In this document: piece after piece, positions 4,377-6,282 of the stretch
Position numbering within the stretch: position 1 is the stretch's first letter
Layout: each line of letters opens with the position of its first letter
From: a virus
Lineage: Duplodnaviria; Heunggongvirae; Uroviricota; Caudoviricetes
Direction: 5' to 3' (one strand)
IMG/VR virus record: IMGVR_UViG_2531839661_000013
Coordinates: 1-9,877 of that record
Length of the DNA stretch: 9,877 nucleotides
Notes under the pieces: model-generated
Told to the model about the DNA's origin: nothing
The model's database searches: none
What the model saw: only the letters and a program-made list of their open reading frames with translations
Made by a program: the position numbers and the translations under genes

Positions 4377-4676
4377 ATGAAACTTAAATATTCTGGCTTA
4401 ACTGCCAGTGGCAACACTCACCCTAAATTTACGCGCGGTGATATTTACCGCGACCAGTACGGCGGCACGGTAATGATTAAGGGCGTGGCGGGACGGTGCG
4501 TAACTTACCGCCGTGAAGGTTACGAATATGATTGCGTGATGCCTGTTTATCAGTTCCGGCGTGATTTTTCTCTGGTACAGACCGCGCCGCATAACGTGCC
4601 CACCAGCAACGCCAGGGCACGGGCAAACATCCAGAAGCTGAAAACCATGATTAACGGATTCAGGAGTAAAAAATGA
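4377..4676 (+). CDS. hypothetical protein (99 aa)
   Basis: RBS GGAG upstream. Its stop overlaps the primase ATG (ATGA at 4673-4676). Confidence 0.55.
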   Translation: MKLKYSGLTASGNTHPKFTRGDIYRDQYGGTVMIKGVAGRCVTYRREGYEYDCVMPVYQFRRDFSLVQTAPHNVPTSNARARANIQKLKTMINGFRSKK

Positions 4677-6082
4677 AACTGGCACCGAACGTAAAACTAT
4701 TACCGAAAGATAAATACACCGATGCGATTATTTTTGCGGGTATTGATGCTCACTCATTCGCAGAGCATTACATCATTGCACAGGCCAAAAAAGCAGGCGA
4801 TCCAGTCCCTCCCGTTTATCTGGGGCGTTATCAGTTAAGCGAACTGGATAACCTCCAGATTGTTGATGATGGGCGATACAGGGCGACGGTGATACGCGCC
4901 GGAAATATTGAAGAGCCGCAGCTGTTAACCATCGCCACGAAACTGGCGATCGCCGGAGTCCAGGAGGCGCGGCTACTTTCTGAAAATTTCGAATTGCTGG
5001 AGGAATGGAGCGACCAGCTTCCACGGCTTAGGGAGGCATGGGAACGCGGGGAAAGCCTGGTCATGAAAAAAATCCCCCAGCGAAAAACCACGCTACCGAT
5101 GAGCGTTGGATCTACCGGATACGACACACAGCTTGATTACGTGGTAAAGGGGATTATTCCGGCATCGTCGCTTTGCAGCATATACGGGGCGAGCGGTTCC
5201 TATAAATCATTCCTTGCCGGATCGTGGGCGTGTCACGTTTCCACGGGCCGCCAGTGGGGAGGCCGCAGGGTGGCGCATGGCGCTGTTCTCTATGTGGTTG
5301 GTGAAGGCGGTATCGGCGTTCCGCGTCGTGTAAAAGCCTGGGAGGTTGTGCACGATGAGCAGGTGAAAAATCTGTATCTGGTAAACCGTCCCATCTTTCC
5401 GGCGGTCCCGCTTGATGTTGATGAAATGGTTATCGCTGCCCGTCAGGTGGAGCGGGAAACGGGTAAACCTGTACGCATGATTATTCTGGATACGCTGGCG
5501 CGTTGCTTTGGTGGCAATGATGAAAATGATTCCCGTGATATGGGGGCATTTATCCGTGGTTGTGACGAACTGAAACGACGCACAGGGGCTACGGTGCTGG
5601 TGGTTCACCATTCCGGCAAGGATGAGACGAAAGGCGCGCGTGGTTCCAGTGCATTTCGTGCATCACTGGACGCTGAATACCGGATACGCAGGGAGGACGC
5701 AGGAAGCGAAGCGCTGGTTATCTCATGCACCAAAATGAAGGACGCGGAGGAACTCAAAGAAGCCGCATATGACTTACGCGTGGTGGAGCTGTTTACCGAC
5801 GCTGACGGGGAGTTAATCACGTCGCTGGTGGTGGTGGATAAGCCGCGTCCTCCCGTTGAACTGGAGCGCATCGAAGAGGCTGGCAACAAGACGGAGAATC
5901 ATGCTGCGCTATGGGGATGTATCCGGTCACGCACACAGCACGGCGACAAGTGCACGATCCCGCTGTTACGTGACGATATGAAAAAGCTGGGGTACGAAAT
6001 GAAAAACTTCAGCCGCTGGCTACGCAAGCTGGAAAAAGACGCCGTTATTTATATCGACGGTGATGATGTAGGCCCTCTGTAA
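4673..6082 (+). CDS. satellite replication protein: RecA-fold ATPase (RepA/DnaB-like), primase/helicase-like
   Basis: 469 aa. P-loop YGASGSYKSF at 5183-5212 (variant Walker A, GxxGxYKS). Walker B-like hhhhD (MIILDTLA) and downstream VLVVHHSGKDE...GSSAF, typical of RepA-like replicative ATPases. RBS AGGAG 6 nt upstream. An iteron array follows immediately. Confidence 0.8.
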   Translation: MKLAPNVKLLPKDKYTDAIIFAGIDAHSFAEHYIIAQAKKAGDPVPPVYLGRYQLSELDNLQIVDDGRYRATVIRAGNIEEPQLLTIATKLAIAGVQEARLLSENFELLEEWSDQLPRLREAWERGESLVMKKIPQRKTTLPMSVGSTGYDTQLDYVVKGIIPASSLCSIYGASGSYKSFLAGSWACHVSTGRQWGGRRVAHGAVLYVVGEGGIGVPRRVKAWEVVHDEQVKNLYLVNRPIFPAVPLDVDEMVIAARQVERETGKPVRMIILDTLARCFGGNDENDSRDMGAFIRGCDELKRRTGATVLVVHHSGKDETKGARGSSAFRASLDAEYRIRREDAGSEALVISCTKMKDAEELKEAAYDLRVVELFTDADGELITSLVVVDKPRPPVELERIEEAGNKTENHAALWGCIRSRTQHGDKCTIPLLRDDMKKLGYEMKNFSRWLRKLEKDAVIYIDGDDVGPL

Positions 6083-6282
6083 AAAGTGAGGCGCAAAAGT
6101 GAGGACAATGAGGAATTGCACGAAATATTAACACGATTACTCACTTTCTCACCTGTATACATGCTCAAAAGTGAGGAGTAAAAAAATCCTTATGAAACAC
6201 ACACATAAAGCATCAAAAAATATCAAGTGAGACGAAGCGAGACGCTTTAAAAAGTGAGGTGTAAAAGTGAGCATGAGTGAGG
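6083..6282. repeat. iteron array / putative origin of replication
   Basis: AAAGTGAG(G/C) at 6083, 6096, 6168, 6251 and 6264 (two pairs with 13-bp spacing). Inverted partial copy at 6141-6153 and degenerate copies near 6225 and 6275. AT-rich stretches (6115-6140, 6177-6224) between repeats could act as an unwinding element. Confidence 0.55.

Follow-up and report, generated by a model that had tools for sequence, protein, structure and literature searches.

An aromatic P-loop Rep protein and an adjoining iteron array as the probable replication module of an EcCICFT073-like phage-inducible chromosomal island

In phage-inducible chromosomal islands (PICIs), the rep gene is followed by the replication origin, in which two iteron sets lie around an AT-rich region (Fillol-Salom 2018; PMC6092414). 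The rep-ori segment of the PICI EcCICFT073 sustains plasmid replication, and the alpha protein of satellite phage P4 is also discussed in that study (PMC6092414). Several PICIs are listed at the yejM site in Table S1 of that study, where EcCI11128 is catalogued (NC_013364, 2855322-2864257; PMC6092414). Rep proteins of the pathogenicity islands of Staphylococcus aureus (SaPIs) are self-loading initiator-helicases with a C-terminal winged helix that reads short iterons. SaPI origins consist of 6-12 iterons directly after rep, with a central AT-rich region and some copies inverted (PMC9371898). The subject of this analysis is the rep gene and the downstream iteron array in a 9,877-nucleotide stretch of viral DNA (Caudoviricetes; IMG/VR record IMGVR_UViG_2531839661_000013, positions 1 to 9,877), hereafter the window. 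The window is very probably an EcCICFT073-like PICI of the Gram-negative type, with rep-ori as its replication module.

The Rep protein has three modules. Their positions in the window, with those of two short motifs, are as follows.

4673-6082, plus strand: rep, encoding a predicted 469-residue helicase-initiator with an N-terminal domain, an AAA_25 ATPase core, and a C-terminal DNA-binding domain
4673-5077, plus strand: N-terminal domain, residues 1-135, alpha/beta with a Toprim-like fold, lacking a zinc ribbon and the canonical acidic motifs; an exchangeable module
5186-5209, plus strand: Walker A variant GASGSYKS, residues 172-179, placed by alignment to RepA (1g8y)
5873-6079, plus strand: C-terminal domain, residues 401-469, helix-helix-helix-strand-strand, winged-helix-like; putative iteron-recognition domain
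6002-6007, plus strand: Lys444-Asn445, the residue pair just before helix 3 of the C-terminal domain

The Pfam profile AAA_25 matches residues 151-318 (E=1.6e-43; score 149 bits, cut-off 27), and the full length of Rep matches phrog_2850, a family that PHROGs labels 'unknown function'. RefSeq names the protein 'helicase RepA family protein', and no origin is annotated in the RefSeq records examined. RepA of plasmid RSF1010 (1g8y) is the only PDB sequence match found with phmmer; it is weak (E=0.005), and the alignment covers residues 153-323, taking in Walker A, Walker B, and the HH motif. Across 19 aligned sequences of 58-100% identity, K178, S179, D273, E284, H312, H313, K316, and R323 are invariant. 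The conserved positions include those that would serve as the Walker B aspartate (D273), the catalytic glutamate (E284), the HH motif, and the arginine finger.

The best fold matches of the N-terminal domain are the Toprim domains of DnaG, T7 primase, and Twinkle. No Pfam Toprim match, zinc ribbon, or canonical Glu/DxD motif is found in it, and neither the isolated N-terminal nor the isolated C-terminal domain matches any Pfam family at E<=10. The first 130 residues are 45% identical to the N-terminus of the superfamily 3 (SF3)/D5-type Pri-Rep of EcCICFT073 (locus L083, 8242-8640). This type of N-terminal domain is also fused to D5_N in another protein (P0220) and occurs on Klebsiella plasmids under genes annotated 'DUF927 domain-containing protein' (hits H32-H34). 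Rep is thus built from three exchangeable parts, of which the N-terminal domain of ~130 residues is a mobile module. The C-terminal domain is modelled by AlphaFold2 with a predicted local distance difference test score (pLDDT) of 78-91, with helices at 408-422, 429-438, and 446-455 and strands at 459-462 and 465-468. A relative of Rep in E. coli (P0076; 563 residues) does not have the usual C-terminal end but is fused there to a lambda head-decoration-protein D domain (PF02924); this fusion may be real or may be an assembly or annotation artefact.

At the P-loop of the ATPase core, the translation of rep gives IYGASGSYKSFLAG. The initial annotation had described GASGSYKS as a Walker A variant, and alignment to RSF1010 RepA bears this placement out. 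The Rep segment 'iyGASGSYKSfla' stands opposite 'lvSPGGAGKSmla', so that Tyr177 occupies the position of the canonical glycine before the Walker lysine (Lys178). Rep thus departs from the canonical GxxxxGK[ST] pattern by the tyrosine directly preceding the lysine (position K-1). The same tyrosine is present in 120/120 close homologues. Its wider distribution was surveyed by a profile search of 1.84 billion cluster representatives (50% identity), in which the best 150 matches were returned and 145 cover the P-loop. At K-1, the nearest 50 representatives have Tyr (31), Phe (16), Gly (2), or Leu (1), and the next 40 have Phe (15), Tyr (12), Gly (6), Leu (5), or other residues (2). Among the remaining 55, glycine predominates (39). 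The Walker lysine is found in all 145, followed in each by Ser or Thr. Because most of the nearest 90 representatives share an aromatic K-1 residue, the residue defines an AAA_25 subfamily and does not exclude Rep from membership. The pattern argues that the Tyr/Phe P-loop is a conserved and selected trait of a large AAA_25 subfamily. A limited literature search found nothing specific on this type of Rep or on the aromatic P-loop.

The replaced glycine also allows a different explanation, in which Rep binds the origin independently of ATP, its helicase function is lost or weakened, the P-loop is disabled by the Gly-to-Tyr change, and host DnaB does the unwinding. Origin binding and melting by SaPI Reps proceed without ATP (PMC9371898), and the P-loop region of the Rep model has very low confidence. 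However, the lysine and the Ser/Thr that follows it are retained throughout the 145 representatives, and D273, E284, HH312-313, and R323 are invariant across the family. Tyr or Phe in 47/50 of the nearest representatives indicates a selected residue class and not decay. Moreover, relatives join the same core to an intact Zn-ribbon/Toprim primase as in T7 gp4, an arrangement that is sensible only with an active helicase. Loss of ATPase function is therefore improbable, and the Rep ATPase is presumably active despite Tyr177.

Directly downstream of rep lies the iteron array, which is composed of the following elements.

6083-6113, plus strand: left iteron set of three direct copies, AAAGTGAGG at 6083-6091, AAAGTGAGG at 6096-6104, and ACAATGAGG at 6105-6113
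6139-6155, minus strand: two inverted iteron copies, seen on the plus strand as the reverse complements AAAGTGAGT at 6139-6147 and CAGGTGAGA at 6147-6155
6154-6161, no strand: palindrome TGTATACA, flanked by the inverted copies and the next direct copy; candidate centre of nucleation or melting
6168-6176, plus strand: direct iteron AAAGTGAGG, pointing away from the inverted copies
6177-6224, no strand: AT-rich spacer of 25% GC that separates the left and right sets; candidate DNA-unwinding region
6224-6282, plus strand: right iteron set of five direct copies, CAAGTGAGA at 6224-6232, GAAGCGAGA at 6234-6242, AAAGTGAGG at 6251-6259, AAAGTGAGC at 6264-6272, and TGAGTGAGG at 6274-6282

The left set begins at the base right after the TAA stop codon of rep. 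The motif AAAGTGAGS has exactly five matches in the window, all on the plus strand (6083, 6096, 6168, 6251, and 6264) and all within 6083-6272 in the gap after the stop codon. By chance 0.14 would be expected, and five were reached in 0/200 shuffles. The five iterons that had been reported from the sequence alone are therefore present as exact copies, although the full array is larger. Counting degenerate copies, there are 11 cores of the GTGAG type, nine direct (6086, 6099, 6108 as ATGAG, 6171, 6227, 6237 as GCGAG, 6254, 6267, and 6277) and two inverted (6140 and 6148). The inverted copy of the initial annotation corresponds to CTCACTTT at 6140-6147. Its AT-rich spacers are also evident: GC content is 28% at 6114-6138 and 25% at 6177-6224, compared with 49% for the whole window, and the minimum in 60-nt windows is 0.32. 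The 13-bp phasing that it proposed holds for two pairs only, 6083/6096 and 6251/6264. Neighbouring direct cores are spaced 13, 9, 10, 13, and 10 nt apart and those of relatives mostly 10-12 nt, which rules out a strict 13-bp phase as a family property. The locus thus has what is expected of an iteron origin, a short repeat clustered far above chance beside an AT-rich stretch. It also has the two sets (6083-6176 and 6224-6282) around a 25%-GC stretch that characterize PICI origins. Outside the origin, two overlapping AGTGAG cores (AGTGAGTGAG) lie on the minus strand at 3818-3827, inside the open reading frame (ORF) 3622-3939. They are probably due to chance, since the extended AAAGTGAG motif is missing there.

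The arrangement is retained among relatives. The comparison set consists of 80 loci encoding Rep relatives on one-genome-per-species contigs and eight further Enterobacterales loci, mostly from E. coli, taken from individual proteins or published PICI coordinates. About 86 Enterobacterales Rep relatives have the same repeat layout directly 3' of the rep stop codon, spanning Escherichia, Xenorhabdus, Pantoea, Kluyvera, Kosakonia, Serratia, Pectobacterium, Morganella, and other genera. Nearly every locus has a repeat of 9-11 nt in 5-12 copies within ~200 nt of the stop codon. The order is two or three direct copies at the stop codon, an inverted copy ~40-65 nt downstream, a TATA-like element, a direct copy, a spacer, and three to five direct copies. 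Relative to the stop codon, the left-set equivalents lie at +2, +14, and ~+25, the inverted copy at ~+41 to +66 in nearly every relative, the equivalent of the 6168 copy at ~+71 to +97, and the three to five right-set copies at ~+140 to +200. The cognate core averages 8.6 copies in the 262 nt after the rep stop codon, compared with 0.39 per 262 nt in the remainder of these loci. An element resembling (T/C)(G/A)TATA(T/C)(A/G) occupies the position of TGTATACA in 22/22 displayed relatives, whatever their iteron sequence, and TGTATACA is nearly invariant in an E. coli alignment (A2).

Further details of these origins concern the sequences between the iterons. Variants CTGTATATA and GCATATATA of the palindrome occur at the same position in L003, L031, L034, L041, L084, L091, L092, and other loci, and the palindrome, unlike the iterons, does not co-vary with Rep. 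Many AAA_25-type origins (L031, L038, L043, L077, L029, L090, and L092), and also the SF3-type origin of EcCICFT073 (L083, 10175-10215), share a motif 'gaaa(c/g)cc...cattactgg' in the spacer that separates their two iteron sets. The motif is possibly a host-factor or priming site; the window lacks it and has only 'tgaaac' at 6194-6199. In the nearest complete genome (L001), whose proteins are 99-100% identical, the non-core origin spacer differs by 19% (10442-10493 against window 6114-6165). The second inverted core is lost there (TCAAC for CTCAC), and the other ten cores are identical to those of the window.

One relative is recorded as a circle. Klebsiella pneumoniae pKp_Goe_795-4 (CP018459.1; L092) is a closed circular record of 16,971 bp, deposited as a plasmid, with genes for an integrase, an AlpA-like protein, a Rep relative, a capsid, a head-tail adaptor, a terminase, and a tape-measure protein. 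Its Rep relative has RKSF in helix 3, and the origin after it shows the same layout, built from (A/G)TGCGGC repeats. The record looks like a capsid-forming satellite caught in the form in which an excised replicating satellite would appear, although the record alone is no proof of replication.

The position of the array also permits a regulatory explanation, namely that it is mainly a transcriptional operator or promoter for the downstream PerC and capsid genes, or serves rep autoregulation, and is not an origin. It lies in the one gap of any size that separates rep from the next ORF, and its last copies overlap the ribosome-binding region of that ORF (6294-6542; ATG at 6294). Plasmid iteron-binding initiators often autoregulate. 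However, there is no sigma-70-like promoter and no terminator inside 6083-6290; a scan of 5900-6500 found no promoter-like site and one minus-strand terminator-like site inside rep, which is at chance level. The layout is kept where the downstream genes are unrelated, and the repeat sequence changes together with the C-terminal domain of Rep itself, as described below. Two sets, an inverted copy, a TATA-like centre, and an AT-rich stretch are furthermore the architecture of the PICI origin that works in EcCICFT073 (PMC6092414). A mainly regulatory array is thus quite unlikely, and a regulatory side role is possible.

Repeat sequences differ among the relatives. Xenorhabdus and Rosenbergiella share AAAGTGAGGA with the window; AAGTGGGGA is the repeat of Pantoea, Kluyvera, and Trabulsiella, AAGTGGGGGAA that of Serratia, Pectobacterium, Morganella, and Erwinia, and A(A/G)(T/C)GCGGCA that of Kosakonia, Enterobacter, and Citrobacter. 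Loci were sorted by the residue pair that precedes [FLM]xRW, where the third helix of the Rep C-terminal domain starts, and 67 could be classified. All 31 loci with KN have [GA]TGAG. KH accompanies GTGGG(G) in 11 loci and GTGGGGG in two, KK accompanies GTGGGGG in 15/15, and (R)KS accompanies [GA][TC]GCGGC in 8/8. No locus is off the diagonal (0/67), and sub-threshold loci mostly lean the same way.

Because ancestry at the genus level could yield part of this pattern, E. coli mosaics provide a sharper, independent test. L084 and L091 (EcCI11128) have an ATPase core (residues 136-400) 98% identical to that of the window, yet carry KH; L085 also has KH, with a core 91% identical. At aligned core positions, GTGGG is found at 11/11 in L084 and 10/11 in L085, and the origin of EcCI11128, read directly, has GTGGGG throughout. 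Loci with KN (L001, L086, and L089) keep GTGAG. Divergence of the non-core origin spacer in these mosaics is 17-36%. The N-terminal domain is irrelevant to the switch: GTGGG occurs both in L091, where this domain is 42% identical to that of the window, and in L084, where it is 91% identical. The co-variation and the mosaics therefore point to the C-terminal domain of Rep as the part that sets specificity, and the repeats behave as the cognate binding array of Rep would. That rep-ori is an initiator-plus-origin cassette setting replicon specificity, as the initial annotation had suggested, is likewise supported by this comparison, with the layout kept in ~86 loci and iterons that follow the C-terminal domain.

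An RSF1010-like division of labour, with the AAA_25 protein only a helicase and a different island protein binding the iterons, is very unlikely. Its basis is that RSF1010 RepA, the closest solved relative, is a helicase without an origin-binding role; the RSF1010 iterons are bound by RepC. However, RSF1010 RepA (279 residues) lacks the C-terminal domain of ~70 residues present in the window Rep, and it is this domain that the iteron type follows in the mosaics. Twelve other ORFs of the island were checked against all loci; none tracks the iteron type, and none is common to all loci of one type, which argues against another island protein as the binder. The downstream ORF, DUF4222, AlpA, and eight small ORFs are either missing from Xenorhabdus and Rosenbergiella loci with the same iterons or 98-100% identical in islands with different iterons. 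Near-identical ORFs despite other iterons include o3399 in EcCICFT073 and AlpA and o3912 in EcCI11128.

Several islands can reside in one Xenorhabdus genome, as in Xenorhabdus sp. TCT-1 (L004 and L010), X. hominickii (L016, L020, and L071), and X. budapestensis (L021 and L025). The GTGAGGA iteron type is repeated within the genome in TCT-1 and X. hominickii. X. budapestensis has the GTGAGGA type and, in the other island, mainly a AATGAGGAA variant; its Reps differ (LEND versus LEQD) after helix 3. These co-resident islands bear on replicon cross-talk between satellites.

A mechanism for binding, melting, helicase loading, and priming can be proposed from these observations. The winged-helix-like C-terminal domain of Rep would read iterons of ~9 nt with the core GTGAG, with Lys444-Asn445 at the start of helix 3 setting the specificity. 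Multiple Rep molecules would fill the 11 sites within 200 nt after the stop codon. The DNA may then open at the oppositely oriented copies flanking TGTATACA (6139-6176) and the adjoining 25%-GC stretch, where the RecA-fold (AAA_25, SF4-like) ATPase ring of Rep would load. The helicase would drive replication once the island has excised. Priming would probably fall to the host primase, because the Toprim-like domain of Rep is without a zinc ribbon and the canonical acidic motifs; the window Rep probably does not prime by itself.

Several points weigh against this picture. With a residue other than glycine before the Walker lysine, nucleotide binding might be impaired. The AlphaFold2 model is weak in the ATPase part (pLDDT 28-45 around the P-loop). 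A Foldseek search of the whole Rep model against the PDB gave weak, mixed, and uninformative matches (sugar-binding proteins, reductases, Twinkle, and Rad51), which were discarded because the model has low confidence in the ATPase part. The winged-helix assignment follows only from the predicted order of secondary structure, and the C-terminal domain matches no Pfam family or PDB sequence. Shared genus-level ancestry partly confounds the co-variation. Finally, the equivalent of the 6177-6224 spacer is not AT-rich in every relative, and the actual melting site is uncertain. With these points taken into account, we still consider it highly likely that rep-ori is a PICI replication module and Rep a self-contained initiator-helicase.

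The surrounding genes agree with this assignment. The window extends from int (1-1242), encoding a P4-type tyrosine integrase, to a terminal ORF of 93 residues (9596-9877). Between them, Pfam matches and the ORF list place an AlpA-like gene (1739-1945), DUF4222, rep, PerC, and a ClpP-protease/major-capsid fusion. The integrase, the size class of ~8-12 kb, the AlpA-like regulator, and the rightward unidirectional gene order are those of a PICI, and the gene order equals that of EcCICFT073 and EcCI11128. In E. coli strain 10, the corresponding island sits between tRNA-Pro/yejM and yejO. The rep-ori stretch reaches <=96.7% identity in complete E. coli genomes. Megablast of 4673-6300 against a phage collection gave no match, and a phage protein search with Rep found only distant AAA_25 helicases of <60% identity. 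Rfam gathering-threshold and tRNA scans of the whole window found nothing, with no sign of an RNA element in the gap downstream of rep.

Other features of the island lie outside the replication module. A direct repeat of 107 nt (79% identical; 6811-6917 and 9348-9454) flanks the protease-capsid gene and is similar in sequence (GGGTCCTCCTGG...ACGGGGCGGAGGGGCGCGG) to the pair of cos sites that EcCICFT073 is reported to have. The lambda cosN GGGCGGCGACCT was absent in a search that allowed <=2 mismatches, and the two copies are possibly packaging sites for a non-lambda helper. PICIs carry helper packaging signals (PMC6092414), but that the GTGAG array is itself a pac or cos site for a helper-phage or island terminase is highly improbable, given that this separate cos-like element exists and that the array co-varies with Rep and not with the morphogenesis genes, which differ among islands sharing the array type. 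The duplicated element and the capsid genes are consistent with helper-phage induction, packaging, and transfer, without proving them. The protease-capsid gene (7453-9342; 629 residues) joins a ClpP-type prohead protease and an HK97-like major capsid protein in one polypeptide, and the island has no portal or terminase gene. Elsewhere this region holds terS and capsid (EcCI11128, same site) or capsid and a decoration protein (EcCICFT073, ycfD-phoQ site). A second direct repeat, of 75 nt (83% identical; 2260-2334 and 2833-2907), overlaps in each copy the 5' end of a small minus-strand ORF (2067-2270 and 2616-2843) and looks like a duplicated promoter/leader-plus-start module.

A broader proposal can be put forward tentatively. 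The Tyr/Phe-for-Gly P-loop may mark a large uncharacterised subfamily of SF4-type self-loading initiator-helicases (PHROG 2850), in which just one residue (Asn, His, Lys, or Ser), placed where the recognition helix begins, would set one or two iteron bases (A, G, GG, or C). One protein change and a subsequent concerted change of all ~11 repeats could then give a satellite a different replicon specificity, and the aromatic residue might have a specific role in nucleotide handling. If true, such a switch would be a way for satellites to avoid cross-talk or incompatibility with co-resident islands. The conserved aromatic in the Walker A loop offers a clean target for asking how far the 'invariant' glycine matters in RecA-fold helicases. 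The correspondence between helix-3 residue and iteron base provides a simple predictor of which satellites share a replicon, as well as handles for engineering compatible satellite vectors.

Among known systems, the SaPI Reps belong to the SF3 clade of AAA+ proteins, whereas the window Rep has the RecA-fold AAA_25 core without a D5_N or SF3 Pfam match; their resemblance is best regarded as a functional analogy and not as membership of a common family. RSF1010 RepA is the founding RepA/AAA_25 member, and its ATPase core aligns with residues 153-323 of Rep, but it has the canonical GKS and no extra N- or C-terminal domains. Relatives of Rep in Xenorhabdus, Serratia, and Pectobacterium combine Zn_Ribbon_Prim, Toprim_3, and AAA_25 in the gp4 order of the T7 gp4/Twinkle-type primase-helicases. 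The window Rep, in contrast, does not have the zinc ribbon and catalytic Toprim motifs ahead of the helicase that define a gp4-like primase-helicase, and it adds a putative origin-recognition domain that gp4 lacks. P4 alpha likewise unites initiator, helicase, and C-terminal iteron-binding domain in one polypeptide of an integrase-bearing satellite. It has an SF3 helicase, an active primase, and two separated iteron regions (ori and crr), and no sequence relation between it and the window Rep was found in this analysis.

The closest counterparts are the E. coli islands. EcCICFT073 shares the order of int, AlpA-like, Icd-like, small ORFs, DUF4222, rep, gap, small ORF, PerC, capsid genes, and terminal 93-residue ORF, with an origin directly 3' of rep in which two iteron sets surround an AT-rich stretch. 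Its helicase is of the SF3/D5 type (D5_N, DUF5906, and Pox_D5), unlike the AAA_25 core of the window, and its iterons are GGTAGACA-like and not GTGAG. EcCI11128 occupies the same yejM/tRNA-Pro site, with a near-identical integrase, an identical AlpA-like protein, a Rep 79% identical overall and 98% in the ATPase core, and the same origin layout. It differs in helix 3 (KHFRRW against KNFSRW), in its iterons (GTGGGG against GTGAG), in an N-terminal domain only 42% identical, and in carrying terS and capsid where the window has the protease-capsid fusion. The module type has thus been described already, the window holds a particular variant, and the established picture of PICI replication is unchanged. 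The present analysis adds the full origin map, the conserved TGTATACA centre, the residue-to-base rule, the three-module Rep, and a view of how far the aromatic P-loop subfamily extends. It thereby assigns an origin, with the probable determinant of its specificity, to one replicon type that is widespread among enterobacterial phage satellites.

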